Assembly: GCF_024223415.1 (NCBI RefSeq)
Contig: NZ_CP100500.1
DNA: 64,000 nt
Reading direction: 5' to 3' (one strand)
DNA from: Escherichia coli
GTDB lineage: Bacteria > Pseudomonadota > Gammaproteobacteria > Enterobacterales > Enterobacteriaceae
Shown here: one piece after another, positions 6,904 through 20,620 of the stretch
Numbering within the stretch: position 1 is the stretch's first letter
Layout: the number at the start of each line of letters is the position of its first letter
Program-made: the position numbers and the translations under genes
The notes under the pieces: generated by a model
The model's input: the letters and a program-made list of their open reading frames with translations, nothing else
The model's database searches: none
Told to the model about the DNA's origin: nothing

Positions 6904-9180
6904 TTAATGCGCTGCTTCCGCCTTGTGCTTTTGTGCACTCTGAAATCCGTAAGTCAGCTCATTTTTCTCTTTATCCAGCGCGACGGTGACCTGACCGCCG
7001 TCCACCAGCGAACCAAACAGCAGTTCGTTGGCAAGCGGTTTTTTCAGGTTGTCCTGGATGACACGCGCCATCGGACGAGCGCCCATTGCCCGGTCGTAAC
7101 CTTTCTCGGCCAGCCAGTTACGCGCTTCCTGGCTCACTTCCAGAGAAACACCTTTCTGATCCAGCTGAACCTGCAACTCGACGATGAATTTATCCACCAC
7201 CTGATGGATCACGTCAGTTGACAGATGATCGAACCAGATAATGTTGTCGAGACGGTTACGGAATTCCGGTGTAAAGATCTTCTTGATCTCTTCCATCGCA
7301 TCGGTGCTGTTATCCTGGTGGATAAGACCAATGGATTTGCGCTCAGTTTCCCGTACCCCGGCGTTAGTGGTCATCACCAGTACCACGTTACGGAAGTCCG
7401 CTTTGCGTCCGTTGTTATCGGTCAGCGTACCGTTGTCCATCACCTGCAACAGAATATTGAACACGTCCGGATGCGCTTTCTCGATTTCGTCCAGCAGCAG
7501 CACCGCATGTGGATGCTTGATGACCGCATCAGTCAGCAAACCGCCCTGATCAAAACCAACGTATCCCGGAGGCGCACCAATCAGACGGCTGACGGTATGG
7601 CGTTCCATATACTCGGACATATCAAAGCGCAGAAGCTCAATGCCCAAAGCTTTCGAAAGCTGTACCGTCACCTCTGTTTTCCCGACCCCGGTAGGACCGG
7701 CAAACAGGAACGAACCGACCGGTTTATGTTCGTGACCTAAACCTGCACGCGCCATCTTAATGGCTTCAGTCAGCGCCTCAATGGCTTTATCCTGACCGAA
7801 GACCAGCATTTTCAGGCGATCGCCGAGGTTTTTCAGGGTATCGCGGTCACTCTGAGAAACACTCTTCTCTGGAATGCGTGCAATACGGGCCACCACGGAC
7901 TCAATATCCGCCACATTAACGGTTTTCTTGCGTTTGCTTACCGGCATCAGGCGTGCGCGAGCGCCCGCTTCGTCGATAACATCAATCGCTTTATCCGGCA
8001 GATGACGATCGTTAATGTATTTCACCGCCAGCTCTACCGCCGCACGCACCGCTTTTGCGGTATAACGCACGTCGTGGTGCGCTTCATACTTCGGTTTCAG
8101 GCCATTGATGATTTGAACAGTTTCTTCGATCGACGGTTCAGTAATATCAATTTTCTGGAAGCGACGCGCCAGAGCACGGTCTTTCTCGAAAATGTTGCTG
8201 AACTCCTGATAGGTTGTCGAACCAATTACGCGAATTTTACCGCTGGAGAGCAACGGTTTGATTAGGTTAGCCGCATCGACCTGACCACCAGACGCTGCAC
8301 CCGCACCGATAATGGTGTGGATCTCATCAATAAACAGGATGCTGTTAGTGTCCTGCTCCAGCTGCTTGAGCAACGCTTTAAAACGTTTTTCAAAGTCGCC
8401 GCGATATTTTGTGCCCGCTAACAGAGAACCGATATCGAGAGAGTAAATCGTACAGTCAGCCATCACTTCCGGCACATCGCCCTGAACAATTCGCCAGGCA
8501 AGACCTTCTGCAATCGCGGTTTTACCGACACCAGATTCCCCCACTAGCAGCGGGTTGTTTTTACGGCGACGGCAGAGAACCTGAATAGCACGCTCCAGCT
8601 CCTTCTCACGACCAATCAGTGGGTCGATTCCGCCCACGCGCGCAAGCTGATTCAGGTTCGTCGTGAAATTCTCCATACGTTCCTCCCCACCAGCTTGTTC
8701 TTCGCTGTTTGGCTGGCTGCCAGGATCAGAAGACTGTGTCGGCTCGTCTTTACGCGTGCCATGAGAGATAAAGTTCACCACATCGAGACGGCTGACTTCA
8801 TGTTTACGCAACAGATATGCCGCCTGCGACTCCTGTTCGCTAAAGATAGCGACCAGAACGTTTGCACCGGTAACCTCATTGCGACCGGAGGACTGGACAT
8901 GGAAGACCGCACGTTGCAGTACACGCTGAAAACTCAGCGTCGGCTGTGTGTCGCGCTCCTCTTCACTGGCAGGCAGAACGGGTGTGGTTTGTTCAATAAA
9001 GGCTTCCAGTTCCTGACGGAGCGCAACCAAATCCACAGAACACGCTTCCAGCGCCTCCCGGGCAGATGGGTTACTGAGCAGCGCCAGTAACAAGTGCTCG
9101 ACGGTCATAAACTCATGACGGTGCTCGCGCGCTCTGGCGAAAGCCATATTTAAACTGAGTTCCAGTTCTTGATTGAGCAT
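6904..9180 (-). CDS. clpA: ATP-dependent Clp protease ATP-binding subunit ClpA
   Basis: Product begins [35 protein letters not shown] and carries two AAA+ Walker A motifs ([16 protein letters not shown]); start trimmed from the track ORF. Confidence 0.95.
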
Positions 9181-9210
9181 AGGCACCTCCCCCAATTTTT
9201 ATGCCTGCAT

Positions 9211-9531
9211 TCAGGCTTTTTCTAGCGTACACAGCAATGGATGCTCATTCTCCCTCGCGTACTTGTTCACCATCGCCACTTTGGTTTCTGCAACCTCGGC
9301 GGTAAAGACTCCGCAAATGGCCTTCCCCTGGTAGTGAACAGCGAGCATCAATTGCGTTGCACGTTCTACATCATAAGAAAAGAATTTTTGTAACACGTCA
9401 ATAACAAACTCCATCGGAGTGTAATCATCATTGACTAATATCACTTTATACATAGATGGCGGTTTTAGCGCGTCGCGAACTTTTTCTTCCGCCAGTTGAT
9501 CAAAGTCCAGCCAGTCGTTCGTTTTACCCAT
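9211..9531 (-). CDS. clpS: ClpS adaptor protein
   Basis: 106 aa, [47 protein letters not shown], directly upstream of clpA. Confidence 0.95.
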
Positions 9532-9616
9532 TGTCAGTTATCATCTTCGGTTACGGTTATCGGCAGAACGCCCTGCCGCTGACAAGAGCTTATTTGCCTG
9601 ACCAATCTACTCCACA

Positions 9617-9633
9617 TGATAGATAACTATCAT
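9617..9633. other. Left att core candidate TGATAGATAACTATCAT
   Basis: Near-identical copy TGATAAATAACTATCAT at 20087-20103. Confidence 0.4.
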
Positions 9634-9705
9634 TTATATCATTTAGTTAATTAGTCTTTATTTTTCATTATGTTGCAAATAACAAGCCCGTCAAAAACAG
9701 TGATA

Positions 9706-9760
9706 TTAACTACACCATTAACTACACCGCTTCACGAACAATATCGAACAACCGCGAACA
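9706..9760. repeat. Left-arm repeats: AACTACACC x2 followed by CGAACA x3 (candidate integrase or accessory-factor sites)
   Basis: The same motifs recur in the same orientation at 19946-20078. Confidence 0.4.
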
Positions 9761-9880
9761 AAGATCAACACGCTTTAATCATTATCATTTTCCGGCTATC
9801 CGTCATGAAGCTGGTGGATGATCTGCGTGGTGATTTCCACCATTCAGAGCAGGTGCGGTCATCATGACCATGCCATAACA

Positions 9881-9905
9881 AAAACCCCATATTCGTGGTT
9901 TTTCT
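9881..9905 (+). repeat. 25-bp direct repeat copy 1 (AAAACCCCATATTCGTGGTTTTTCT)
   Basis: Second copy AAACCCCCGGATTCGTGGTTTTCCT at 10518-10542; the pair flanks a hairpin-rich non-coding segment. Confidence 0.5.
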
Positions 9906-10517
9906 GTGTCGGGGCTATTCTGCTGTTGCCGTGCTGGTGGATATTCTCCGGTATGCGGCTCCCCATATCGGCATCAGGCCCACCAGCGTGAAGCGTTTTT
10001 CATTTTTCGCGGGTATAAAAAATCGATGGGGCGGGCAGTCCTGAAGACGTCAGGGTACAGAGATTTGACCCGCCCCTCCCTGTGCATGAGCACAATAAGT
10101 AACCGAAGGCGGAATTCCGCCCTCGGTACTTACATATGAGAAACGATATTTCTTCCACCGATACCCTTTATTTGGGTATCGCGAGTAAGCCCCAAAATCT
10201 GGGTGTTACTCTTACTACCCAAACTACGGGTAGTTTCCGTAGTTTCATGGTCGAGTTGCAAATCTGCAACTCACCCACCAGCCAGCGCAATGTCGCATTA
10301 TCAGTCCTCAGATGTGAGGGATGTAGCCAGCTTTTCCCCCAGTGGGGATTATCCAGTTACCGACGGTTTAACCGCCTGTACCAGCACAACGAAAGAATTT
10401 GCGGGTAGCTTTAAACTACTCACAACATCCCATCTTACAGGCCGTGCCTTTCTAACTTTTTACAATGCAATAAGTCAGGTAACGCTATGCGTTCCACCGT
10501 GTACACCGCGCCAGTAA

Positions 10518-10542
10518 AACCCCCGGATTCGTGGTTTTCCTG
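10518..10542 (+). repeat. 25-bp direct repeat copy 2
   Basis: See copy 1 at 9881-9905. Confidence 0.5.
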
Positions 10543-10554
10543 AATATCAGGAAT

Positions 10555-10929
10555 CTACCGCCGCAACCGTTCCGGCTTCTTCCACTGATAAGTGTTTTTC
10601 GCGCTCTCCCTCCGTTGTTGAGAACGGCGACGGTATGCCAGCAACTCAAGGACTCTGGTTCGTATGTTGCGCATATCCACGCCGTTAAGCTCAATACCAT
10701 CACGGCGCATCACCTCAGCAACAACACACGCGTAATTTTCGGCTATCACGCTGTCCGGCTGCGTGGCCTCCTGTTCGCCAGCCTGCTGGCTGATTCCGGT
10801 AATACTGCGGATTATCCCGAGCGCTTCGGTCTCGGTCATGGTCATGGCCTCCATAGTGATGGCGGGTCCTCCTTGTGGGGTGCCCTGCCACGGGGCGGGA
10901 GCATCGCGGAAAAAGGCTAGTTTTTGCAT
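10555..10929 (-). CDS. Hypothetical protein of the satellite packaging module
   Basis: 124-aa ORF downstream of the Nu1-like gene; no recognisable domain; start uncertain. Confidence 0.45.
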   Translation of the reverse strand: MQKLAFFRDAPAPWQGTPQGGPAITMEAMTMTETEALGIIRSITGISQQAGEQEATQPDSVIAENYACVVAEVMRRDGIELNGVDMRNIRTRVLELLAYRRRSQQRRESAKNTYQWKKPERLRR

Positions 10930-11090
10930 TTTTATTCGTTATCACCACCAATGCAATATATTGATATGACTTGATGTTTTATTTTTCGGTGTCGATTTCG
11001 ATTGTTTTTTGTTCATCACTGACGCATAACGCCCACCAGCGCAACGCTGAAAGCCAGTCAGTAAACTGGCTTCGGTCATTGTGCACTACG

Positions 11091-11645
11091 TTACTTGTCT
11101 TTATCCGGCTGAAACTTATCAGGCACATTTCCGGTAGTTTCCATCAGATAATCGGACAGCATTCGCGGGATGTTTTCATCAAGTTTTGTGCATGCGTTAC
11201 AGGCTCTGACAACTTCTTTTTTCAGGCCATCCAGCATGGCGGGGGTCATCTGTGGGAAGCTCCTTTGCATAGTAAGCGGGAGGCTGTCCATGATTGATGA
11301 AATCTGACTCGCCAGTTTTGAAAGCGCGTACATGCAAAACTCTGTATCAATCACGTCACCGCGATCGCGCTCGTTTTTAAGTTCCTGCGCCTCCGCCTGT
11401 GCTGTCAGTAATCTGATCCTGACTCGTAAAAGTTCATCATCGTCAATCTCGCCTTTGTCGTTTGTAATCTGGCTGATTGCATTGTTAACCCGATTATCTA
11501 TTACACTGGCGACATCATAAAACGTCTCACGGCCCTTACGCTCGACGGGAATCACTCCCCACTTATCGAACGCAGTGGCGCTTACTCGGCAGCTTTTCGC
11601 CATGTTTTTTTTATTCATCAGGTGCGATTTCATCAATACCCCCAC
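11091..11645 (-). CDS. Terminase small subunit, lambda Nu1-like
   Basis: LLRVRIRLLTAQAEAQELKNERDRGDVIDTEFCMYALSKLASQISSIMDSLPLTMQRSFPQM...LDENIPRMLSDYL aligns with lambda Nu1; probable true start at the MNKKNMAK Met near 11618. Confidence 0.8.
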   Translation of the reverse strand: MGVLMKSHLMNKKNMAKSCRVSATAFDKWGVIPVERKGRETFYDVASVIDNRVNNAISQITNDKGEIDDDELLRVRIRLLTAQAEAQELKNERDRGDVIDTEFCMYALSKLASQISSIMDSLPLTMQRSFPQMTPAMLDGLKKEVVRACNACTKLDENIPRMLSDYLMETTGNVPDKFQPDKDK

Positions 11646-11727
11646 TTAATTAATGCTTCAGGTTGGTGTGTTGGTGTTATCTTTCCATTTTTATTCATAG
11701 AGATAGAGCGAACAACAAAACCACCAC

Positions 11728-11790
11728 CAACCCGAAAAGGCTCATAAATAGCGAAAATCCGCAAGGTCGACGCCCCGTAACGGGTCCACA
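11728..11790 (-). other. Lambda-type cos site (cosN/cosB)
   Basis: Minus strand reads ACGGGGCGTCGACCTTGCGGATTTTCGCTATTTATGAGCCTTTTCGGG, matching the lambda cos sequence as I recall it (ACGGGGCGGCGACCTCGCGGGTTTTCGCTATTTATGAAAATTTTCCGG); about 120 bp upstream of the Nu1-like gene. Confidence 0.8.
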
Positions 11791-11805
11791 TGCCGGAAAG
11801 GACCC

Positions 11806-11835
11806 ATAAAAAATAAAGCCGGACTACTCCGGCTT
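11806..11835 (-). terminator. Rho-independent terminator after the FinO/ProQ-like gene
   Basis: Stem AGCCGGA / TCCGGCT followed on the minus strand by a T-rich run. Confidence 0.5.
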
Positions 11836-11858
11836 CGTCTCTTCATGTGGTCAGGGTT

Positions 11859-12539
11859 TTATGCTTTCCGTACGCCCGAGGAACTGGCATTTTTCAGAAT
11901 AATATTATGCCCTGCTGGTGGCTTACCGTTATGCTTATTTTCTGCCTTCATGTTTCTGCGCTCCTGCTGTTTTTTCTTCATCTCATCCAGTCGCTTCCCC
12001 GCGTTCAACTGGTGCTCCTGTGTCACCTCCCCGCACGGATGGCCTTTCAGGTCGTAACGCACGCCACCAGCCATCAGGGAACGGTAATATCGCACTGAAC
12101 TGACATAATACGCCAGCGTTGCGCGAAGCGCTCCCTGACCTAATGAAATACCTCTCGCAGTAATATCCTCCATCAGGTCATCAAATATGCCAACCTTAAG
12201 CGGTCTGGGCGATTCCTGGCTGAAAAGTTCAGGCCAGAGCGCGGCAAGGCGTTCAACGCGTCTGATATTTTTTTTCCGGCTCTTTTCTGATTTGCGTTTT
12301 GCTGCCGTCTTCTGTTGTGTTTTCTGCTCGCGGCTCTGCTTTTGCGCTGGTGTGGTTTTATCCGGCTGTTCAGCCTCCTGCGTCTTTTTCTGCGGTGTGC
12401 CGTATATGCCTTTTGGTTTTCGGTTAATGGTCAGCTTTGTCATGTTCTCCCCCTTTGTGCTGTTCCACCAGCGGCATCTGCTACCCCGTGTCGCTCCCGC
12501 TGGTGTCGTGTTTCCCCGCCTGTTAATAACCGTCATCAT
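11859..12539 (-). CDS. FinO/ProQ-domain RNA-binding protein with a Lys/Gln-rich N-terminal region
   Basis: RPLKVGIFDDLMEDITARGISLGQGALRATLAYYVSSVRYYRSLMAGGVRYDLKGHPCGEVTQEHQ aligns with the E. coli ProQ N-terminal domain (RPLKIGIFQDL...RLYTSSWRYL...RVDLDGNPCGEL); start uncertain. Confidence 0.75.
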   Translation of the reverse strand: MMTVINRRGNTTPAGATRGSRCRWWNSTKGENMTKLTINRKPKGIYGTPQKKTQEAEQPDKTTPAQKQSREQKTQQKTAAKRKSEKSRKKNIRRVERLAALWPELFSQESPRPLKVGIFDDLMEDITARGISLGQGALRATLAYYVSSVRYYRSLMAGGVRYDLKGHPCGEVTQEHQLNAGKRLDEMKKKQQERRNMKAENKHNGKPPAGHNIILKNASSSGVRKA

Positions 12540-12843
12540 TTACGTTATCAGGGTAATCACGCCATATTTCATCAGTAAGCGACGGTAGCCCCATCTGTTG
12601 TATTGTCCTGTCTGCGGCCCTTCTGACTGCGTGAACATCATAACGGTTTTCAGGTATCGGGCGCTTTGCCTTCCTGATACATTCCCTTGCTCTCATTGCC
12701 GCAAGTTCTCTGTGCCTGTCTTCCTGAAGAGTAATCATCACATCCTGCCACCTTCTGGCAGCCCGTCGCCACAGTCCCCTGCTCTCGAGTTCTTCTGCTG
12801 TCGCGTCGCTTATTGTCCGGTTCTTCGGTGTGCTGTTGTTCAT
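12523..12843 (-). CDS. PerC-family transcriptional activator-like protein
   Basis: N-terminal EELESRGLWRRAARRWQDVM resembles the PerC/Pch signature (recalled, not searched). Confidence 0.55.
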   Translation of the reverse strand: MNNSTPKNRTISDATAEELESRGLWRRAARRWQDVMITLQEDRHRELAAMRARECIRKAKRPIPENRYDVHAVRRAADRTIQQMGLPSLTDEIWRDYPDNVNDDGY

Positions 12844-12860
12844 GTTGCTCCCCGCCTGAT

Positions 12861-13271
12861 TCAGAAGGGTATATCATCTCCGTAGGGGTCATCGCCTCCC
12901 GCTGGTGGCTTATTCCCCTGTGCGCCTGTGGTTTTGCGTGTTTTTCCGCCCGGTCGCACTGTCCGCGCACTGATTACGCTGTCTGCGATAACCTGCCAGC
13001 CCTGCCGCGTTTCCCCGTTCTGTCCGGTCCACTGGCTCACCTGCATGTTACCCGCCACGCTCAGGAGTTCACCCTTGCGGTGCTTTGCCAGTGCTTCGGC
13101 CTGTCTGCCAAACGCCAGCACAGATAACCACATCGTCGCCGTTCCGTCATCTGCCTGGCTGCACGGAAGGGGGACCGCCATACTCGCCATCGCCATTTGT
13201 GTCCCCTTGCTGGTGGTCTTTAACTGCGGGTCAGCCACCAGCCGCCCGTAAGCCGCTATCTGTGCTGTCAT
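12861..13271 (-). CDS. ssb: Single-stranded DNA-binding protein (SSB)
   Basis: OB-fold-like N-terminus (IAAYGRLVADPQLKTTSKGTQMAMASMAV), Gly-rich linker and the acidic C-terminal tail DDIPF. Confidence 0.8.
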   Translation of the reverse strand: MTAQIAAYGRLVADPQLKTTSKGTQMAMASMAVPLPCSQADDGTATMWLSVLAFGRQAEALAKHRKGELLSVAGNMQVSQWTGQNGETRQGWQVIADSVISARTVRPGGKTRKTTGAQGNKPPAGGDDPYGDDIPF

Positions 13272-13525
13272 GCTGTATGCTCTCCGGTTTTAACGTTGAT
13301 GGTTGTCACCTGTTCCGCTCCGGCAATCTCCCGTTCTGTCAGCGTGGCAAAATTTGCCGCTACCGTTGTCATGAATGCGCTTATCAGTGCGGGATGTGCT
13401 TTCGCGTATCCTTCTCCCGCGCTGCGGTCGATAATTTTTATCGCCACCCTCAGCCAGTGCTCTGTAAGGTCAATGGCGCGGTTATGTGGTTTCTTCTGAT
13501 TATTAAGTTTTCCTGATGTGTGCAT
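13268..13525 (-). CDS. Hypothetical protein
   Basis: 85-aa ORF overlapping the ssb start by 4 nt (translational coupling). Confidence 0.5.
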   Translation of the reverse strand: MHTSGKLNNQKKPHNRAIDLTEHWLRVAIKIIDRSAGEGYAKAHPALISAFMTTVAANFATLTEREIAGAEQVTTINVKTGEHTA

Positions 13526-13570
13526 TTTTATTTTTACCCCCTCGTTTAAAAAGTTTTGTGTTGTGGTGCA

Positions 13571-13806
13571 CCTCCTCTACCTCTCTACACAATCATCTTT
13601 CAGGTCAGTAATGGCGCGGCTTTCAGCGGGGTAGAGGGCTTTTTTGGCCCTCTACCTGCCATCTACCACCCCCTCACAAATGCCCTGAATTATGGTAGAG
13701 GGTGTAGAGGGCTTTTAAGTACCTTCTACCTGCCATCTACCCAATCTATCAACATGAAATATATGTAATTATTTTCTTAAGGTAGAAGGGGTAGAGGGCT
13801 TTTGTC
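13571..13806. repeat. Iteron cluster; candidate satellite replication origin
   Basis: At least three copies of GGTAGAGGGCTTTT and repeated CTACCTGCCATCTACC, including the palindrome GGTAGAGGGC-TTTTTTG-GCCCTCTACC, immediately 3' of the primase gene. Confidence 0.55.
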
Positions 13807-13811
13807 TAAAA

Positions 13812-15560
13812 CTATAAAAACGCGTCGCAGTCGTCTGTTGTTGTCACGTTGGTTTGCGTAACCCCTTTAATCCTGCGCGTTATATATTCATGTCCGTAAA
13901 CTTTCGCCGCTGGCTTCATGGCCTTGCTGAACTCAGCCACGTTCAGCGGTTTGCTCCTGCCTGCATACGCCATAAACGCCAGATAGACGCGGTAAAGGCT
14001 GTTTCTGGTCGTGTACTTCACGGAATCGCCACCGCCCCCCATCATCAGGCCACGTGCTTCCTCCAGAAAATTCAGGAACTGGCAAAACTCAATAACCGGA
14101 TCCGTTTGCTGCTTTATCGCCAGTGCTTCATCACCGTCACGCTGTTCCAGTAGTAAAGCCCGCGCCTTTTCAGGGTCTGCAAAGTTCGCCAGTAATCGGC
14201 GGATAATGACGGGGATTTCAGCCGCAATCCTTTCCGGTAGCTCCCTGTCTTTTTCAGCCTCACTGACGATATTGTCGAAACGAAAAATCACGCGACGACG
14301 TGCCACACCTCCGGCCCGTTCGGTGAATATCATCGGGTTATTGTTGGTCGCCAGCACCACCGCCCTGATTACAGCCGTGAAACGCTTTTCGTATTTCGGG
14401 TTAATTTCCACGGGGTCACCGCCCGTGATTTTCTTGATGCCCGTTCCTTCGCCTGTATATTTCGGCTGGTCTGCCAGGACGATAAGACGACTCCCGACAA
14501 CCTGCGCACGCCCACCAGCATCATCAAGCGATGTCATCTCAGCGCTTACCGTGTTCTGTTTCCCTGCCAGAAGGCTGGCTATGTGCGTGAATGTACTTTT
14601 ACCGCTCCCGCCGTCTCCGGTGGCCTCAATAAACATCTGCCAGTCGTACCGGTTCGCCATAATCATGTACAGCGCGGCACATATACGCATCATCTTGCGC
14701 GGGTCTTTTCCGGCTGCGTGCTCAAGCCATTTATGAAAGTTTGGCGCGTTATCGCGGATGTTCTCCCCAGGTGCTGGTGGCGTGTACTCAATGCCATTGT
14801 GCGTGGTGATCCAGTTCTCCGGCGTGTGCGGGGAAAATTCCCCCGTTTTCAGGTCAAGCGCACCATTGGCGAACGGCAGCAAATCGCCGGACGGCTCGCC
14901 CATTGGTTCGGCAATAACTTTTAACGCTTCCACGGCGTTATTGATTACGCGCTTGCTGAAAGTGGCCCTGTGCTCTGAATAGATCGCCACCATTTCGCGG
15001 CTCAGTTCCATTGTGCTGACCGGACACCATACCCCGCCGCGCCATACGTGAACGATTTCACTTTCCGGATGCACACAAACGCCATCAAATCGACCAGCAA
15101 GCATCTGTGCGCGCTCACTGTCTGCCATTTGTGCCAGTTGCGTATTTTTCTGCTCCGGCATGGTAAGCCCTGCAGCAATATTTTCACGCTCAGCATTCAG
15201 ATAACGCCGCCAGTTTTCACACTTCTGACCGTGCATTCCTTCGGGGTAAAAATTTGCGTCCTGTACGCCAGCCGCCGCCAGCTTCTGACCAATCGCCTTT
15301 ATCATTACTGGCGCAAGATATCCGGCCCTGAATATACGCACGGATTTTCTGCCTTCCGGCACAATTTGCAGCTTATCCAGTTCGGATAACTGCTGCTCCC
15401 CAAGCCACACAGGAGGCTCATTATCTCCGGCCATACGCGCGTCATGTTCCTGCCATTGTTTCGCGTGTGCCCAGGCATCACTACCCGCAAAAATAATGAC
15501 TTCAGTTCCTTTGTGTTTTATGCCGCGTGACTGCAGTTTTACGTTCGGTGCCAGTTTCAT
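13812..15560 (-). CDS. Replication protein: primase/helicase (P4 alpha-like, P-loop NTPase)
   Basis: 582 aa; Walker A GDGGSGKSTFT; size and position match satellite pri-rep genes. Confidence 0.8.
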   Translation of the reverse strand: MKLAPNVKLQSRGIKHKGTEVIIFAGSDAWAHAKQWQEHDARMAGDNEPPVWLGEQQLSELDKLQIVPEGRKSVRIFRAGYLAPVMIKAIGQKLAAAGVQDANFYPEGMHGQKCENWRRYLNAERENIAAGLTMPEQKNTQLAQMADSERAQMLAGRFDGVCVHPESEIVHVWRGGVWCPVSTMELSREMVAIYSEHRATFSKRVINNAVEALKVIAEPMGEPSGDLLPFANGALDLKTGEFSPHTPENWITTHNGIEYTPPAPGENIRDNAPNFHKWLEHAAGKDPRKMMRICAALYMIMANRYDWQMFIEATGDGGSGKSTFTHIASLLAGKQNTVSAEMTSLDDAGGRAQVVGSRLIVLADQPKYTGEGTGIKKITGGDPVEINPKYEKRFTAVIRAVVLATNNNPMIFTERAGGVARRRVIFRFDNIVSEAEKDRELPERIAAEIPVIIRRLLANFADPEKARALLLEQRDGDEALAIKQQTDPVIEFCQFLNFLEEARGLMMGGGGDSVKYTTRNSLYRVYLAFMAYAGRSKPLNVAEFSKAMKPAAKVYGHEYITRRIKGVTQTNVTTTDDCDAFL

Positions 15561-15856
15561 TTTTTACCCCTGAATCCGTTAATCATGGTTTTCATCTTCT
15601 GAATATTGGCGCGTGCTTTCTCCCTGCTGGTGGGCACGTTACGCGGTACGGCCTGCACAAGAGAAAAATCACGCACAAACTGATAAACAGGCATCACGCA
15701 ATCATATTCGTAACCTTCATGGCGGTAGGTGATGCGCCGTTCTGCCACGCCTTTAATCGTTACCGTACCGCCGTAGTTATCACGGAAAATATCGCCGGGA
15801 CGGATTTCAGGCCGAGTGAGGCCGCTGGCAGTAAAGCCAGAATTTTTCTTTTTCAT
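15557..15856 (-). CDS. Hypothetical protein (99 aa), coupled to the primase gene
   Basis: Stop overlaps the primase start (ATGA). Confidence 0.6.
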   Translation of the reverse strand: MKKKNSGFTASGLTRPEIRPGDIFRDNYGGTVTIKGVAERRITYRHEGYEYDCVMPVYQFVRDFSLVQAVPRNVPTSREKARANIQKMKTMINGFRGKK

Positions 15857-15886
15857 GGTTTTATTTTCCTGTCAGTGATTCCGGCT

Positions 15887-16060
15887 TTATTCCGGCGCGA
15901 ATACAGGCTTCAGAAAAAAAGCCAGAGAACCAATAACCTCATTATTTCTAAGGCGGCATTGCGATTTCACTTTCCCTTTATCCAGGAATATCAAAACGCG
16001 CCCCGTATAATCAGATGGCACATTAAGCACTACAGGTAAGTGCGCTTCATGATTATTCAT
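15887..16060 (-). CDS. Hypothetical small protein (57 aa)
   Basis: Start trimmed to the ATG preceded by AGGAGGTGG; N-terminus MNNHEAHLPVVLNV; start overlaps the stop of the upstream gene. Confidence 0.5.
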   Translation of the reverse strand: MNNHEAHLPVVLNVPSDYTGRVLIFLDKGKVKSQCRLRNNEVIGSLAFFLKPVFAPE

Positions 16061-16340
16061 GGCTAACCACCTCCTGGAATTTTCTTCTGTAACGCGCCTC
16101 TGCCACATATTCAGCATAGTCCGACGCAATATTGAGAATATCGCTACCCGTTCCTGAATGTTCGGCGGTTTCCAGTAAAAAACATGCAGCTTTTACCATG
16201 TCAGCAACACATAACAGCGCAATATCTGTATCTTCCGGTGTGCCATCAAATTCCTGTTTCAGGGCATTAAAACGATCATCACGCATAACCCCATATTCAC
16301 AATCAGCAATCAGGATGGCTTTGGCCTCATTCAGTGCCAT
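16053..16340 (-). CDS. Hypothetical protein; N-terminal extent uncertain (may start at 16496)
   Basis: Only the C-terminal 95-147 codons of the 662-aa track ORF look protein-like (MALNEAKAILIADCEYGVMRDDRFNALKQEFDGTPEDTDIALLCVADMVKAACFLLETAEHS). Confidence 0.4.
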   Translation of the reverse strand: MALNEAKAILIADCEYGVMRDDRFNALKQEFDGTPEDTDIALLCVADMVKAACFLLETAEHSGTGSDILNIASDYAEYVAEARYRRKFQEVVSHE

Positions 16341-16494
16341 ATCAGCGGTAAGCTGTGCGTAGGCCAGCAAATGCGGGATTATTGCCCCTGTATATTCCGG
16401 CTCTCTGATAATGTGGTCGGATGTGTTGATTAAATAGTTTGTGCGAAAAATGCACCTGTAACCATCAGTTAACAACGGATATACAGGGGGGACC

Positions 16495-16665
16495 ATGAAT
16501 GATAAGGGGGTGCCGTTTGATGTGCTCCTGCAAAAGCTGAATGCTGCACGCGCCGCAAGGGAACGTGAGCGCATGAGTAATAACCCTGTCCCTCCTGAAT
16601 TACCTCGCCCTGAACATTTTCCGCTTGAGGATTTCATCAGGGGACGAATCCGAACAAAACGATAA
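16495..16665 (+). CDS. Small protein (56 aa), paralog of the 16909 ORF
   Basis: ATG preceded by a G-rich Shine-Dalgarno; shares the PxxFPLE(D/R)FI motif with ORF 16909..17103; below the track length cutoff. Confidence 0.35.
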   Translation: MNDKGVPFDVLLQKLNAARAARERERMSNNPVPPELPRPEHFPLEDFIRGRIRTKR

Positions 16666-16908
16666 CCGCCGCCGTGATATGAGGCATCACGACGCAATGC
16701 ATTACAGGTGAGCACCATGAACAAATCCATATTATCCCCCACAGTTCTGGACGTAAACACAAAGCAGCGACAGATATTATTACGCGCCGTCATTAAAGCC
16801 AGACACGAGAAATTAAACCAAATCTTAAAATAAGATACGCCGCTACCGCTGTAAGTCTTCATCAGAAACAGAAAACGCCAGAGCAGATGAGCACGGAGGT
16901 AACTCTTT

Positions 16909-17103
16909 ATGAAAATAAACGAATCAGGGGAAATTACCGAAGCCAGCGTGGTACGCCAGCGGAGGCGGGAACGACGGGTACGGCCCCCCGCGCCATCCGA
17001 TAATTTCCCGCTTGAGCGCTTCATCAGTGAACGGCCCCGCATACGCTGGAACGGCACAACCCCATACCCCGAGGAGAGACAGACAAAAAACAAACAGCGA
17101 TGA
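16909..17103 (+). CDS. Small protein (64 aa), paralog of the 16495 ORF
   Basis: GGAGGT Shine-Dalgarno 9 nt upstream; C-terminal FPLERFISERPRIR. Confidence 0.4.
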   Translation: MKINESGEITEASVVRQRRRERRVRPPAPSDNFPLERFISERPRIRWNGTTPYPEERQTKNKQR

Positions 17104-17382
17104 TGAAATCTGGAGGCCAATACCATCACCCAGCCAGTCGGGGATTGCTGGCGGGCTTCCTGTTCGCTGGTGGCCCCGATGGTAATAACGCGTGGTTGTG
17201 CTGTGCTCAGGGCGATAAAACGCCAGATGTATTTATTCAGGTTGTGCGGGTCCCGCCCTTGCGGGTGTGTGGTATGATTTAACATAGCTACCTCGATACG
17301 CTTTCTATCGTTGGTGGTTAGAAGCCCCGTTACTGCTCCAACAGTGCGGGGTTTCGTCGTTTCTGCACCTTTCATCAACAAG

Positions 17383-17434
17383 GTGTTGAACACCAATTTA
17401 AGCCTAGGTGTTAAACACGCCAAGTGTTGAACAC
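17383..17434 (+). promoter_or_regulatory. Three palindromic operator-like sites GTGTT(G/A)AACAC
   Basis: Sites at 17383-17393, 17408-17418 and 17424-17434, about 50 bp upstream of the small gene at 17485. Confidence 0.55.
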
Positions 17435-17484
17435 TTATTTTTTTTCCTGCATACTGCATTTGTTTTTTGTAAGGGGTACACAAC

Positions 17485-17664
17485 ATGGCGACAAAAGCAG
17501 TAAACGCAAAATCACAAACAGTTGCGGCAAGGGTTCCGCATGAAGTTATGAACAATGTTGAGGCGGTAAAAATGCCTGGTGAAAGTACAGGGCAGTTTGT
17601 AACAGCAGCATTAAAGCGAGAAGTTGAATACCGCCAGCGCCGCAAGGCCAAAGAATCAGAATAA
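17485..17664 (+). CDS. Small DNA-binding protein, ribbon-helix-helix-like (59 aa)
   Basis: AAGGGG Shine-Dalgarno; N-terminal strand-like TVAARVPHEVMNNVEAV then a basic helix; downstream of the palindromic operators. Confidence 0.45.
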   Translation: MATKAVNAKSQTVAARVPHEVMNNVEAVKMPGESTGQFVTAALKREVEYRQRRKAKESE

Positions 17665-17712
17665 TCACTATCAGCGCCGTGGTGTGAGGTACTGCGGCGC
17701 ATTGTTTTAAAG

Positions 17713-17913
17713 GTGATAATTATGAATAACCAGGAACTACAAAATAAAGCATTATCAATTATCATGCGCCAGCGTGAGAAAACCCGCAGGGAAATAAATA
17801 AGGCATTAACCCGTACTGAAAATCTTAAAGTTCCTGATAAGTTCGCCCTTGATCCTTTTGTCGAGAAATACCCTCGGCGCTTAAAAGCAAACAAAAACCG
17901 CCCACCTGGCTGA
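17713..17913 (+). CDS. Hypothetical small protein (66 aa)
   Basis: AGGTGA Shine-Dalgarno; basic helical sequence. Confidence 0.4.
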   Translation: MIIMNNQELQNKALSIIMRQREKTRREINKALTRTENLKVPDKFALDPFVEKYPRRLKANKNRPPG

Positions 17914-18051
17914 CAATCCACCAGCAAGCCACCACACTGGACACATTGCCCACCAGCCAGCAAATCGCTATGATGTTCGGGCTTATGTTTAGTGTTTTCC
18001 CATTGGCGACCGCCCCCGGTCGCCTTTGTTTTATGTGTCATATACTCCCCT

Positions 18052-18348
18052 TTACGCTGCCTTGCCTGAATTAATGCGATCCCGGCTTTTAACCCATTCC
18101 ATAACCTCGGACAGCAGCCAACCTACAGAACGCCCACCAAGATTACGGCGAGACGGAAAGCTCCCTTTTTTCTCCAGTTCGTAGCGTGTAGTGCGACACA
18201 CTCCAGTTAACTTACGACATTCATCCTCACGGATTACGCGATCTTCATTTATTTCACGCATACAAAAACCTACATAAAAATTACGTATATAAACTTTTCT
18301 CTTAGCTGTAGATATATGAGATCGGATATTACTTAGATTCTTTTTCAC
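18052..18348 (-). CDS. AlpA-family transcriptional regulator
   Basis: C-terminal TRYELEKKGSFPSRRNLGGRSVGWLLSEVMEWV matches the AlpA pattern; true start may be an internal Met. Confidence 0.7.
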   Translation of the reverse strand: MKKNLSNIRSHISTAKRKVYIRNFYVGFCMREINEDRVIREDECRKLTGVCRTTRYELEKKGSFPSRRNLGGRSVGWLLSEVMEWVKSRDRINSGKAA

Positions 18349-18680
18349 CTCTTAAATTAAAAACACAACCATGCTAAAGGCTTTGTTCGCTAAGGTTCGT
18401 AGAAGCTCGTTAGTGTTTAAAATCGTGTCACGAGTTTTTAAGCGACGCAACAAAAAATGTCGTCATTTGGCATGTCACCTGAATTACCTCATTAAAAACA
18501 AATAGATAAACCATCAGATGTTGGAACAATCAAGAAACAGAGAATAAGAACTCAGAAGAAGACATTTCAATTTTTTTCGATAGTTGACACATATAAAGAG
18601 AAGATATTTGCAGATATTCCCCGATATTCTAAGATCTATTCACGGCTGTAATCTCTTAAAGAAAAAACAGCCGTAATTTG

Positions 18681-19919
18681 TCAAGAATTTTGGGGGTAAA
18701 TTCGCGGGGTCATAACAACGATTTTTTCATCATTGTTCTGGAGAAGCTCGAGACGGTCTACCCATAGATTAAGAGCGTCACGCTTTGCATCGAGATAACG
18801 GGAGTGGTTATAGACGCGTTGCATTCCTGGCATCTGGTGGGCAGTAAGCTGTTCAACAATATGCGGATCCACGCCTAAATCGTTCAGCATGGTTGTAAAT
18901 GTGTGCCGGATGTCGTGCAACGACCAGGGGGCTTGATTAATGCGTCTGTGTGCCGTTCTTCCGTACTCTGCTACGGATGATTGCCCTTTCAGTTCTCCAA
19001 GCAATAAGCCCGTGTGCCTGTTCTGCTCCACCAGCTTCATGACGAACGGCAAGATCGCTTCCGGTATTGGCCTGAATATTGCTACCTTCGTTTTGCTGTG
19101 TTCTTTCGGCACAGTCCAGAGCATTTCTTTAAAATCCCATTCCCGAACCTCGGAGCGTCTTAGCTCAGTGGTACGGCATCCGAAGACAATCAGAAGGCGA
19201 ATTAAAGCGCTGTAGTACGGCGGGAAAATTTTTTCATCCAGTGCGCGGAGTAGCTCGCCAAGCTCCTTGTTTGTTAGCACTCGCTCGCTTATTTCTGCTT
19301 TTTTTCCCACATCACCTACGACCATATCATCAAGAACGTTACTGACGGCGTAGCGACGTTTACGGCAGTACTTAAGCGCCTGTTTGCATACCTGCAACAA
19401 AAAGCCGGCTGATACCGGATTACGCTTAGCAAGCTGGTCAAAACAGGCCAGCCAGTGGCGTAGCTCGCATTTATCCAGCGGCATAGCACCAATCTGGCTG
19501 ATTATGTGCTTATTGATACGGCTTTTCAGTGATTCGTGGTCAGTGCGCTTTTCCTTCGCATACGACTCAAGCCAGTAAGTGAGCGCGTCCTTAACCGTCA
19601 CGGGGGCTAACGCTTCCTGCACTGTGTGATTAAGCTCATGGCGTGGATTTTTCCCCTCCGCCAGCCAGGCGCGACACTGTGCCGCTTTTTCCCTGGCTGC
19701 TTTCAGGCTCAGATCGGGATAGTTGCCCAGTCTCAGGCGTTCCGGTGATACCTGCCTGCCAGTTCCGGCCCTGTAAGTGAAATACCAGGTTAACAGGCCG
19801 CTGGTGGAATGTCTTACGCTAAGATTGCCACCGTCATTAAAAAAGGCGTTTTTTGTGGTTGGTGATCCGCTTAATTTTCGTAAAAGAGTGTCGCTAAGTC
19901 TATGAATTGCGCTGCTCAT
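18681..19919 (-). CDS. int: Tyrosine integrase
   Basis: 412 aa; catalytic region LHDIRHTFTTMLNDLGVDPHIVEQLTAHQMPGMQRVYNHSRY. Confidence 0.9.
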   Translation of the reverse strand: MSSAIHRLSDTLLRKLSGSPTTKNAFFNDGGNLSVRHSTSGLLTWYFTYRAGTGRQVSPERLRLGNYPDLSLKAAREKAAQCRAWLAEGKNPRHELNHTVQEALAPVTVKDALTYWLESYAKEKRTDHESLKSRINKHIISQIGAMPLDKCELRHWLACFDQLAKRNPVSAGFLLQVCKQALKYCRKRRYAVSNVLDDMVVGDVGKKAEISERVLTNKELGELLRALDEKIFPPYYSALIRLLIVFGCRTTELRRSEVREWDFKEMLWTVPKEHSKTKVAIFRPIPEAILPFVMKLVEQNRHTGLLLGELKGQSSVAEYGRTAHRRINQAPWSLHDIRHTFTTMLNDLGVDPHIVEQLTAHQMPGMQRVYNHSRYLDAKRDALNLWVDRLELLQNNDEKIVVMTPRIYPQNS

Positions 19920-19945
19920 GTTTCGCGTTTCCGGTCATCAAAATT

Positions 19946-20078
19946 AACTACACCATTGACTACACCGTGCATCGTACAAGGGCAAACCGTGACGAACAAG
20001 AGCGAACAAGTAAAACAAAATTTTCCTTTATAATCATAGCGATGAATGCACACAAAACACTACCACGAACACCCGCGA
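19946..20078. repeat. Right-arm repeats: AACTACACC / GACTACACC followed by CGAACA motifs
   Basis: Same motifs and orientation as the left arm at 9706-9760; overlaps the int promoter region. Confidence 0.4.
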
Positions 20079-20086
20079 ACACTAGA

Positions 20087-20103
20087 TGATAAATAACTAT
20101 CAT
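20087..20103. other. Right att core candidate TGATAAATAACTATCAT
   Basis: Direct repeat of 9617-9633 with one mismatch. Confidence 0.4.
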
Positions 20104-20323
20104 CTATCGTTGGCATCAGCGACATCTGTCACATTCCTGTCAATAGCGTTAACTGCTTCAAATTTTTGATTCATACCTGCCCCCTGTCCCCTGTCAAATG
20201 CTTGACGGCTCGCCCTAATTCTCTAAATTGTATTTCTAGAGTTGGCGAGGTTTTGAACAGCCCCCTCTCTGACCCCGGTTTATTCCATCTTACTTGTATA
20301 AGATTTGCGAAGGATGTCGAAGC

Positions 20324-20548
20324 ATGGAAAAGGGTACTGTTAAGTGGTTCAACAATGCCAAAGGGTTTGGTTTCATCTGCCCTGAAGGCGGCGGCGAAGA
20401 TATTTTCGCTCATTATTCCACCATTCAGATGGATGGTTACAGAACGCTAAAAGCTGGACAATCCGTTCAGTTTGATGTCCACCAGGGGCCAAAAGGCAAT
20501 CACGCCAGTGTTATTGTGCCCGTCGAAGTAGAAGCGGCAGTCGCATAG
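20324..20548 (+). CDS. cspD: Cold-shock-like protein CspD
   Basis: MEKGTVKWFNNAKGFGFICPEGGGEDIFAHYSTIQMDGYRTLKAGQSVQFDVHQGPKGNHASVIVPV; start trimmed to the ATG with AAGGA Shine-Dalgarno. Confidence 0.95.
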   Translation: MEKGTVKWFNNAKGFGFICPEGGGEDIFAHYSTIQMDGYRTLKAGQSVQFDVHQGPKGNHASVIVPVEVEAAVA

Positions 20549-20581
20549 CTCTTCTGTCTCATTGTGTACATCCTAAAGGCA

Positions 20582-20611
20582 AAATGCCAGCCCGATCGGC
20601 TGGCATTTTTA
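20582..20611. terminator. Bidirectional terminator between cspD and macB
   Basis: AAAATGCCAGCC-CGAT-CGGCTGGCATTTT hairpin flanked by A and T runs. Confidence 0.6.
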
Positions 20612-20620
20612 TCTCAAAAA

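Follow-up and report, generated by a model that had tools for sequence, protein, structure and literature searches.

Terminal and probable arm-type repeats at the attachment junctions of a phage-inducible chromosomal island inserted at yljB in Escherichia coli

Positions 9617-20103 of the window (the whole 64-kb stretch of DNA that was analysed) are an integrated phage-inducible chromosomal island (PICI) of 10.5 kb in the E. coli chromosome, and it ends at two junctions formed by a P4-family tyrosine integrase, whose target site overlaps the yljB stop codon in the clpS/cspD interval. The 17-base repeats at the ends and the repeats just inside them are a real feature of an already known kind. 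By analogy with related elements, the best overall explanation, and one we consider reasonably probable, is a P4-type att site of a PICI at which Int would bind the ACTACACC pairs and AlpA the CGAACA arrays. The gene content is that of a satellite (int, alpA, primase, SSB, PerC, ProQ, TerS), with clpS on one side of the insertion point and yljB/cspD on the other. The junctions and the genes nearest to the argument are:

9617-9633, unstranded: left (int-distal) junction identity block TGATAGATAACTATCAT, with the host-type G at position 6
20087-20103, unstranded: right (int-proximal) junction identity block TGATAAATAACTATCAT, with the island-type A at position 6
20100-20174, minus strand: yljB (24-aa small protein; RefSeq annotation in occupied and empty loci), an intact host gene that the island joins at its 3' end
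18681-19919, minus strand: tyrosine integrase of 412 aa (Pfam Arm-DNA-bind_3, N-terminal and arm-binding, 1.2e-16; Phage_integrase, 1.6e-17)
18052-18261, minus strand: alpA, 69 aa (RefSeq annotation; Pfam Phage_AlpA, 3.8e-16), probable excision factor and activator

TGATAGATAACTATCAT and TGATAAATAACTATCAT differ by a single base (G/A), with exact identity over 5 bp and 11 bp on either side of the mismatch and a weaker match reaching 24 of 29 bp. By itself the 16/17 direct repeat is weakly significant (an estimated ~0.2 expected in 11.8 kb), and the repeats are taken as the real ends because their position falls exactly on the island/host boundary. A synthetic empty site (left flank, TGATAGATAACTATCAT and right flank) aligns with ATCC 8739, O157:H7 and other genomes at 100% identity over 457 nt. 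The clpS-cspD site is uninterrupted in about 5,057 of 5,424 genomes, and diverse islands occupy exactly this insertion point in ~7% of E. coli genomes. The G-variant 17-mer is present once in each of the 4 empty sites sampled. The predicted attP junction (right arm, A-variant 17-mer, left arm) was found at 230 of 231 identical positions in a metagenome-derived IMG/VR contig, L011; the same contig holds a host junction too, and its attP could stem from a tandem insertion instead of a free circle. A circular contig (L076, 119-bp terminal repeat) contains the equivalent attP of a tqsA-type relative. The earlier note had claimed that the 17-bp repeats bound the element and had named the empty attB and the attP junction as checks; the claim is borne out by the uninterrupted site with a single 17-mer, by the joined sequence with two flanking arms in a public contig, and by the exact island/host boundary.

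The loci compared yield 10 junctions of the host-left/G/island type and 7 of the island/A/host-right type, together with one attB and one attP. In all 19 sites, without exception, G belongs to the host-left side and A to that of the island, and strand exchange is therefore confined to the 11-bp ATAACTATCAT. This exchange core is already published for PICIs at cspD-clpS: Table S1 of PMC6092414 gives ATGATAGTTAT, its reverse complement, and the available part of that paper reports the 11-bp core with no mention of arms. Within it, a 7-bp overlap, AACTATC, flanked by inverted core sites is proposed from the sequence:

9625-9631, unstranded: left copy of the putative overlap AACTATC, inside the 11-bp identity ATAACTATCAT
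20095-20101, unstranded: right copy of the putative overlap, overlapping the yljB stop (TCA at 20100-20102, TGA on the minus strand)
20087-20094, plus strand: proposed island core-type site C (TGATAAAT), where TGA(T/G)AAA(T/A) is conserved in 19 unique arms
9632-9639, plus strand: proposed island core-type site C' (ATTTATAT), predicted from dyad symmetry with C
9617-9624, plus strand: proposed host core-type site B (TGATAGAT), inverted repeat with B' at 7 of 8 bases in the empty site
20102-20109, plus strand: proposed host core-type site B' (ATCTATCG), pairing with B across the 7-bp overlap

In attB, AACTATC has the perfect inverted repeats GATAGAT and ATCTATC on either side, and its offset from an invariant AACACTA block equals that of the overlaps in phoQ, tqsA and thiM-rcnR type sites. 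In the phoQ-type attP, the sequence at the site C position and TTTTATCA are perfect 8-bp inverted repeats separated by 7 bp, and the T at the third position of C' is the dyad counterpart of the A found at position 6 in the 17-mer.

Inside the junctions, both ends carry two ACTACACC repeats followed by CGAACA repeats in the same orientation, as the earlier note had described:

9709-9728, plus strand: int-distal ACTACACC-N4-ACTACACC (9709-9716, 9721-9728), co-oriented with the proximal pair
19947-19966, plus strand: int-proximal ACTACACC-N4-ACTACACC (19947-19954, 19959-19966), 12-bp period, probable Int arm-type sites
9735-9760, plus strand: int-distal array of 3 CGAACA, 10-bp period, 6 nt past the doubled motif
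19973-20008, plus strand: int-proximal array CGTACA, CAAACC, CGAACA, CGAACA, 10-bp phase, probable AlpA sites
20066-20081, plus strand: core-proximal pair CGAACA-N4-CGAACA, the second unit overlapping the invariant AACACTA (20078-20084)
18384-18409, minus strand: candidate AlpA operator CGAGCT, CGAACC, CGAACA, 10-bp phase, upstream on the alpA coding strand
20027-20036, unstranded: conserved A/T-rich block TTTATAATCA, between two arrays

ACTACACC matches 6 times in the 64-kb window (0.96 expected), and 4 of the 6 are in the arms. Relative to the overlap centre, the doubled-motif centres lie at -141.5 bp (int side) and +90.5 bp, constant to ±1 bp across 7 loci that represent 3 Int clades and 4 att specificities. 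19 unique arms align without gaps over the stretch that runs from doubled motif to overlap, 157 bp long except in one locus, where it has 158 bp, and the invariant columns are the repeats and the AACACTA..TGAnAAA block; among islands at the yljB site, substitutions fall in the spacers and spare the repeats. Across the three clades, a change in the doubled motif coincides only with the greatest divergence of the Int N-terminal domain (60% identity). The arm-type sites of P4 and KplE1 have the same doubled layout, so the ACTACACC pairs are probably integrase arm sites. The reading of the ends as a tyrosine-recombinase core with arm-type sites thus agrees with the N-terminal arm-binding domain of Int and with repeats and exact spacing that are kept in related islands.

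CGAACA occurs 3 times at the left (9735, 9745, 9755) and 4 times at the right (19993, 20003, 20066, 20076), where CGTACA (19973) and CAAACC (19983) are degenerate units in phase. CGAACAN4CGAACA has 4 matches in the 64-kb window (0.02 expected), all 4 in the arms, and GAACA arrays phased at 10-11 bp were found nowhere else in that window. The int-distal array is unchanged in 6 islands at the yljB site, where its spacer bases vary. In relatives the 10-bp unit is degenerate (CGAACA, TGAAACA, TGGAACA, ATAAACA), and across the three clades its changes coincide with the greatest AlpA divergence (60% identity). The arrays read TGTTCG on the int strand, with GTTCG starting 161 and 151 nt (core-proximal pair) and 88 and 78 nt (int-proximal array) upstream of the int ATG; comparable phased arrays, of 4 units in L006 and 5 units in clade 2, also precede alpA. 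Operators of recombination directionality factors (RDFs) usually consist of direct repeats that are spaced by one helical turn and bound with loose specificity (PMC7498355). The CGAACA arrays are probably sites for AlpA, the excision factor, and the two repeat classes would then probably serve two different proteins, Int on ACTACACC and AlpA on CGAACA; this assignment draws on analogy with P4 and KplE1 plus covariation over just three clades.

In the mechanism we propose, four Int protomers would place their catalytic and core-binding domains on host TGATAGAT/ATCTATCG and island TGATAAAT/ATTTATAT and their N-terminal arm domains on the four ACTACACC half-sites of the two co-oriented tandem pairs, and arm-site binding would fold the arms onto the core in the style of phage P4. 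AlpA would act as a Vis/TorI-like winged-helix RDF with the 10-bp-phased CGAACA units as operators: induced by a helper phage, it would bind cooperatively and bend the arms for Int-dependent excision, and at the array upstream of alpA it would turn on its own promoter. In EcCICFT073, the available part of PMC6092414 reports that AlpA activates its own promoter and triggers int-dependent excision, and that the activity of a Pint fusion is unaffected by AlpA. If AlpA sits on the int-proximal arm, the latter result runs counter to the KplE1 model.

Unless int is transcribed by read-through from yljB, its promoter has to be within the 167 bp that separate the int ATG from the core. A sigma-70 scan of the int strand of the arm gave zero matches at the threshold of at least 9/12. 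The best pair by eye, TATAAA (20032->20027) and TTGTGT (20055->20050) with 17-nt spacing on the int strand, scores 8/12, below that threshold, and its -35 element is not conserved in clade 2; it is a weak candidate for Pint. By occupying the int-proximal arm, Int could reduce transcription of its own gene, as happens in KplE1 and P4, and from that precedent autoregulation is a reasonable idea and a possible one.

The opposite assignment, with CGAACA units as Int arm-type sites like P'1-P'3 of lambda and the ACTACACC pairs as sites for AlpA or another island or host protein, is one that we hold unlikely. The CGAACA counts and phasing (3 on one arm, 2+2 on the other) resemble the lambda arm-site layout, the Pint result in EcCICFT073 (PMC6092414, in the part available) favours it, and the authors of PMC10111431 are undecided between Int and AlpA as the binder of the analogous doubled motif in helper-embedded PICIs (HE-PICIs). 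However, pairs with a 12-bp period are the arm-type repeats of P4 and KplE1, whose integrases likewise carry Arm-DNA-bind_3; the KplE1 RDF motif is GTTCG; CGAAC-type arrays also stand upstream of alpA, where AlpA acts; and the doubled motif follows the divergence of the Int N-terminal domain. It is quite improbable that ACTACACC marks Int arm sites and CGAACA binds no island protein, reflecting instead a host nucleoid protein, intrinsic bending or remnants of an arm module that was duplicated. Within clades the spacers vary and the units do not, TorI sites agree in motif, orientation and position, short AA steps make poor A-tracts for intrinsic bending, and an IHF consensus scan gave only one 1-mismatch site, the background rate; these points stand against a 57-nt module common to both arms (72% identity), the degeneracy of the unit across genera, and an AACA about every helical turn over the whole proximal arm, which speak for it.

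The overlap assignment is not unique, because attB holds a second perfect 7-bp palindrome, ATGATAG-N4-CTATCAT. There is a small chance that the crossover is centred on this palindrome, ATGATA(G/A)-ATAA-CTATCAT inside the 17/18-mer, with the central 4-6 bp as overlap in place of AACTATC. A 4-bp spacer is atypical of tyrosine recombinases, though, and a 6-bp version (AATAAC/GATAAC) would place the G/A difference in the overlap, at odds with the strict segregation of the two bases in all 19 sites; relatives fit the 7-bp-spacer model, including a perfect TGATAAAA-N7-TTTTATCA. That the terminal repeats are chance or regulatory sequences with no role in recombination, and the island an immobile remnant, has nothing in its favour beyond the modest significance of the 16/17 repeat alone in 11.8 kb. 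The diverse islands at the same exact point in ~7% of genomes and the intact int and alpA argue against it, and the exact empty site, the public attP junction and the G/A segregation refute it, so that we give it almost no credence. The preferred reading remains the P4-type att site, with Int on the ACTACACC pairs and AlpA on the CGAACA arrays.

In phage P4 as in the island, 12-bp arm repeats form co-oriented tandem pairs on either side of the core with the int-side pair farther out (134/75 bp from the core centre for the record-annotated P4 attP repeats, 141.5/90.5 bp here), a 10-bp-phased array comes after the int-proximal pair (GGACAA/GGAAGA/GGACGA in P4), and int transcription runs away from the core. 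AlpA is 43% identical to P4 Vis, and the Int proteins are alike in domain architecture at 24% identity. The arm repeat is (A/G)TGCCCCC in P4 and ACTACACC in the island, P4 targets a tRNA-Leu gene and the island the yljB 3' end, a phased array on the distal arm is present in the island but was not seen in P4, and the island is a PICI, not a P4-like satellite.

KplE1 (CPS-53)/HK620 shares with the island an RDF core of GTTCG on the int strand, in blocks ~150 and ~80 nt upstream of the int ATG. KplE1 has five TorI sites (GTTCG/GATCG/GTCCG) in two blocks upstream of intS (PMC2951348), I1-I2 at 154 and 134 nt and I3-I5 at 91, 81 and 71 nt, compared with TGTTCG at 161, 151, 88 and 78 nt in the island. 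In both, the arm sites come as pairs with a 12-bp period, on the far arm as well as between the RDF block and the int ATG, and the int promoter necessarily lies within the att arm; in KplE1, attL overlaps PintS, which IntS and TorI repress. TorI and IntS are 25% and 21% identical to the island AlpA and Int, and TorI falls below the threshold of the Pfam Phage_AlpA model, which the island AlpA matches. KplE1 has its RDF gene at the far end, but in the island alpA adjoins int, RDF-type arrays are on both island arms whereas no GTTCG array was seen on the KplE1 far arm, and Pint is repressed by TorI in KplE1 but unaffected by AlpA in the related PICI (PMC6092414, in the part available).

Phage lambda attP has Int arm-type sites P1, P2 and P'1-3, Xis sites and IHF. 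The island follows the same logic of a heterobivalent integrase, with a 7-bp overlap between inverted core-type sites, arm sites at a distance and RDF sites in phase. The two integrases have N-terminal domains of different families, lambda arm sites are single 10-bp units where the island has 12-bp pairs, Xis sites are on one arm only where the island has arrays on both, and lambda int transcription does not start within the arm, unlike that expected from the island int promoter.

Among PICIs, the helper-embedded group (PMC10111431) shares with the island two co-oriented copies of an 8-bp core repeated in tandem every 12 bp. They lie at fixed, unequal distances from the attP centre, 81±2 and 132±2 bp in HE-PICIs compared with 90.5 and 141.5 bp here, and in each case the arms differ by 51 bp. 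The HE-PICI motif is TGTATTGC, reported by the authors to be absent from other PICIs, rather than ACTACACC, their integrases belong to another clade with other targets, and no second repeat class is described for them (PMC10111431), whereas the island has CGAACA arrays. EcCIIHE3034 and EcCI18098 (Fillol-Salom et al., 2018; PMC6092414, in the part available) have the cspD-clpS site and core ATGATAGTTAT as in the island. AlpA is identical (WP_001206975), Int is of the same yljB-site lineage but a different RefSeq protein, and the cargo differs, with capsid and decoration genes in IHE3034 and ProQ and PerC in the island.

The 10.5-kb insert (9617-20103) between clpS and yljB carries every gene leftward, and its gene content and order are those of a Gram-negative phage-inducible chromosomal island (PICI). 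The integrase and the host genes on either side are placed as follows:

6904-9195, minus strand, clpA, left host flank
9211-9531, minus strand, clpS, left host flank
18681-19919, leftward, tyrosine integrase (412 aa) with an N-terminal Arm-DNA-bind_3 domain
20100-20174, minus strand, yljB, right host flank, followed by cspD, macB and macA

Other insert genes encode AlpA, an Icd-like protein, DUF4222, a D5-type primase, SSB, PerC, ProQ/FinO and a Nu1-type small terminase. As is characteristic of PICIs, the insert falls in the 10-15 kb range, has a unidirectional int-alpA-...-primase/replication-...-packaging order, and has its own att site, which is among the PICI attC sites listed in PMC6092414. 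Helper-phage induction, packaging and transfer are demonstrated there for relatives only, such as EcCICFT073. Identity with EcCIIHE3034 itself was considered and rejected: the two islands have the int/alpA/att module in common and unlike cargo. The integration target is not a tRNA gene, since a tRNA scan returned none, and an Rfam search of 9000-21000 gave no matches. The target gene yljB is preserved because its stop codon falls within the sequence block shared by both junctions. Insertion parts yljB (20100-20174) from clpS, which lies on the same strand 86 bp past the core (9531-9617).

The island ends at the two 17-mers (9617-9633 and 20087-20103), and these ends are real. A synthetic empty site, in which the left 17-mer directly links the two host flanks, was compared with E. 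coli genomes; ATCC 8739, several strains of O157:H7 and other genomes match it at 100% identity across 457 nt. The site is uninterrupted in 5,057 of 5,424 complete E. coli genomes, and about 7% of complete genomes have an island there. As the earlier note had anticipated for the unoccupied locus, the 17-bp sequence TGATAGATAACTATCAT is present exactly once in each of four sampled empty sites (ATCC 8739, W3110, BCE049 and E2348/69), so that the identity block occurs once in the empty site and again at each of the two junctions. The excision junction, also proposed to lie at the 17-mer, was matched in silico when IMG/VR was scanned with an exact pattern from the predicted attP: in IMGVR_UViG_3300019373_000108 (L011), an assembled metagenome contig, the int-proximal arm runs through TGATAAATAACTATCAT straight into 112 nt of the int-distal arm, and 230 of 231 positions are identical to the prediction. 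The other end of this contig carries a host junction, so L011 has one of two origins, a circle alongside an integrated copy or an insertion in tandem; its A...T combination across 13 nt cannot be produced by k-mer assembly of two chromosomal junctions. The equivalent attP of a tqsA-targeting relative is found in L076, a circular 11.1-kb assembled metagenome contig with a 119-bp terminal repeat.

Position 6 of the 17-mer is G at all host-left junctions (10/10) and A at all island/host-right junctions (7/7) among the fetched loci, and is G in the empty site and A in attP. Because the two bases segregate by junction side in this way, position 6 is outside the exchanged segment, on its left; the base directly after the 17-mer is outside it on the right, which confines exchange to ATAACTATCAT. 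Read on the opposite strand, this segment is the 11-bp core ATGATAGTTAT that PMC6092414 (Table S1) lists for the cspD-clpS PICIs EcCIIHE3034 and EcCI18098, and the cores derived here for relatives at phoQ (AAATATGTCC) and tqsA (TGCTGTTAT) equal those published in the same source. The att site was therefore already known; for these sites the available part of PMC6092414 gives the core alone, with the arms unmentioned.

Written around the central 7 bp, attB is TGATAGAT|AACTATC|ATCTATCG, with perfect 7-bp inverted repeats, and attP is TGATAAAT|AACTATC|ATTTATAT, in which G-to-A left of the 7 bp has its mirror image in C-to-T on the right. The dyad symmetry is kept in relatives, and in the phoQ-type attP it is perfect (TGATAAAA-N7-TTTTATCA). 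Ahead of the 7 bp, the 19 unique int-proximal arms compared, which represent three integrase clades, share an invariant AACACTA-NN-TGAnAAA block, and the 7 bp that follow it always fall within the respective identity block. AACTATC (9625-9631 and 20095-20101) is thus the likely overlap, flanked by putative inverted core-type sites; it is not certain, because a second palindrome, ATGATAG-N4-CTATCAT, is also present in the site.

Both arms carry two classes of direct repeat. The 17-mers, both ACTACACC pairs (9709-9728 and 19947-19966) and the CGAACA repeats were all found where the earlier note had located them, and the arm repeats exceed chance: the 64-kb window has 6 copies of ACTACACC where 0.96 would be expected, with 4 of the 6 within the arms, and CGAACAN4CGAACA occurs 4 times in the window against 0.02 expected, all 4 within the arms. 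No 10-11 bp-phased GAACA array was found elsewhere in the 64-kb window. The doubled ACTACACC motif has a 12-bp period and is centered 141.5 bp (int side) and 90.5 bp (far side) from the overlap center, offsets that are constant within ±1 bp in 7 loci representing three integrase clades and four targets (yljB, phoQ, tqsA and thiM-rcnR); the doubled motif stands 157 bp from the overlap (158 in one locus) in a gap-free alignment. The CGAACA units have a 10-bp period and begin 6 nt past the doubled pair on each arm, with three units on the far arm and four, two of them degenerate, on the int-proximal arm, where an extra CGAACA pair lies 5 bp from the core. Among islands at the yljB site, substitutions hit the spacers and leave the CGAACA units untouched. 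Phased CGAAC-type arrays also occur upstream of alpA, on the alpA strand, in this island and its relatives. A protein-pattern scan of genome contigs returned three loci only, in Serratia, Erwinia and Raoultella (Int identity about 52%), which keep GACTACAC pairs and the same layout; with n=3 the sample is too small to test covariation statistically. An IHF consensus scan of the reconstructed attP gave a single 1-mismatch site (9637-9649), which is not claimed, its frequency being that of background (0.95 per kb).

A further IMG/VR scan yielded 80 loci, mostly prophage calls that end at the int start codon and hence have no proximal arm. Several IMG/VR loci have mixed or altered arms. The arm of L075 is tqsA-type on its int side but phoQ-type toward the core, and its overlap, like that of L049, is the variant TATGCCC. 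In L077 a tqsA-type arm adjoins an unlike flank, perhaps that of a secondary site or of a different host. L039 has an unchanged host-left junction and repeats, but the 70-nt spacer of its far arm differs. Taken together, these loci suggest modular exchange inside the arms. An arm can evidently outlive its island, as a remnant at smrA-abgR (L013; NZ_CP159641.1, 17009-17540) retains no more than the initial 165 nt of its integrase gene, along with a full int-proximal arm with both repeat classes.

The earlier note had also proposed that the right arm overlaps the int promoter, with possible autoregulation. In the order yljB, core, int, all on the minus strand, int adjoins the junction and runs away from the core, with its ATG 167 bp from the right identity block. 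Because int is directly downstream of yljB and the core and co-oriented with them, a dedicated promoter must sit in this 167-bp arm; read-through from yljB is also conceivable, as int is its next co-oriented gene downstream after insertion. A sigma-70 consensus scan gave no match of at least 9/12 on the int strand of this arm, and the best candidate by eye, TTGTGT-17-TATAAA (20055 to 20027; 8/12 match), lacks conservation in clade 2. In the same configuration, int is repressed by IntS/TorI and by P4 Int/Vis, and by analogy it is plausible that Int represses its own gene here. Pint-lacZ activity in the related EcCICFT073 was unchanged by AlpA (PMC6092414). A weak terminator-like match (20078 to 20063) was rejected: it consists of two CGAACA direct repeats, with a spacer that varies in the related loci L007 and L025. 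On the int-distal arm, a promoter-like TTGACG-16-CATAAT (9667-9694, minus strand; 10/12 match) is directed toward the core and would read into clpS when the island is integrated and across attP into int on the excised circle; its -35 is invariant in six islands and its -10 is variable.

The layout of a tyrosine-recombinase core with arm-type sites is borne out by an integrase with catalytic and arm-binding domains (Pfam Phage_integrase, 1.6e-17; Arm-DNA-bind_3, 1.2e-16), the identity block and the attP junction. Island Int is 24% identical to P4 Int (E = 2e-16) and island AlpA is 43% identical to P4 Vis (E = 4e-19). Operators for excision factors usually consist of direct repeats spaced by one helical turn, and their specificity is loose (PMC7498355). 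In EcCICFT073, AlpA activates transcription from the alpA promoter and sets off excision that depends on int (PMC6092414). When the three clades are compared, the doubled motif is replaced (by GACCACAC) only where the N-terminal domain of Int has diverged furthest (60% identity), and the 10-bp unit is replaced (by TGAAACA/TGGAACA) where AlpA has done so (60% identity). From the P4 and KplE1 layouts, the likeness to Vis, the arrays upstream of alpA, the action of AlpA in EcCICFT073 and this three-clade covariation, we infer that the ACTACACC pairs are quite probably sites of the Int arm domain, and that the CGAACA arrays are, on balance, AlpA sites. The reversed assignment, with CGAACA arrays serving Int and ACTACACC pairs serving AlpA, is improbable, since these same observations assign the repeats the other way.

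A broader reading can be offered tentatively. In the island, AlpA could be a dual-purpose Vis/Apl-type factor with 10-bp-phased GTTCG-type operators on each att arm and also at the alpA promoter, such that one helper-induced protein would switch on the island operon and simultaneously remodel both arms for excision. If so, the island would use a two-armed RDF intasome of rigidly fixed geometry (157 bp from doubled motif to overlap), common to integrases of at least four target specificities.

Additional sequence features lie within the insert. A 662-aa open frame of odd low-complexity composition (16053-18041, minus strand) is probably in large part not real coding sequence; in this interval RefSeq gives a 410-aa 'Icd-like' protein for the near-identical island of strain Br_112_kylling, and relatives have several small genes. 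Iterons of the sequences GGTAGAGGG / CCCTCTACC cluster at 13560-13810, in either orientation, just past the primase gene's 3' end; with three GGGGTAGAGGGCTTTT-type copies at spacings of 73 and 87 bp, the cluster looks like the island replication origin. Chi (GCTGGTGG) is strikingly dense in the 10.5-kb island (9810-19807), with 19 sites (9 on the plus and 10 on the minus strand) or 1.8 per kb, versus 13 sites or 0.24 per kb in the remaining 53.5 kb of the window; the density is 0.7-1.2 per kb in nine related islands (among L003-L012), and phage P4 has no Chi site. An 18-bp perfect inverted repeat (9801-9818 / 19027-19044) consists of two segments containing Chi. Chi guards DNA against RecBCD in lambdoid phages without anti-RecBCD functions, and the island sites may similarly shield linear or concatemeric island DNA.

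These results give base-level attachment-site anatomy for a widespread E. coli phage-satellite family, with relatives at phoQ, tqsA, smrA and thiM-rcnR in hundreds more genomes, and make exact ends predictable. New here are the identity of the doubled motif for this integrase clade, the rigid arm geometry common to several target specificities, the public attP junction and, as a sequence pattern, candidate RDF-type arrays in each of the two arms as well as at the alpA promoter. Full-text search for the ACTACACC motif with integrase found no earlier mention, only unrelated primer matches. A conserved rigid arm scaffold with varied 7-bp overlaps suggests how integrases switch target with the intasome unchanged; such retargeting is relevant to PICI engineering, because PICIs are under development as DNA-delivery vehicles. 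Concrete sequences are also named through which AlpA may couple helper-phage sensing to excision. The accepted picture of tyrosine-integrase recombination is unchanged.

By the features tested, the island's architecture appears to belong with P4-type and KplE1-type attachment sites. The P4 GenBank record annotates the attP arm repeats as tandem pairs of period 12 in the same orientation, at distances of 134 and 75 bp from the core center; the island likewise has asymmetric co-oriented pairs of period 12 on both arms, at 141.5 and 90.5 bp, and encodes a Vis/AlpA-family excision factor and a P4-family integrase. P4 also has a 10-bp array (GGACAA/GGAAGA/GGACGA) after its int-side pair. In KplE1, the IntS arm sites are also pairs with a 12-bp period (GGGTAAAATAGCGGGTAAAAT), and the excision factor TorI has five sites (GTTCG/GATCG/GTCCG) in two blocks, 154 and 134, then 91, 81 and 71 nt upstream of intS (PMC2951348). 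On its int strand, the island has TGTTCG at 161 and 151, then 88 and 78 nt upstream of int, and so, as a sequence pattern, keeps the core motif, orientation and two-block layout of KplE1. Unlike both P4 and KplE1, the island has an RDF-type array on the int-distal arm as well. Helper-embedded PICIs have a doubled motif TGTATTGC with a 12-bp period at 81 and 132 bp, said to be absent from other PICIs (PMC10111431); the doubled motif of the island's clade differs from it in sequence, whereas the 51-bp asymmetry is the same.
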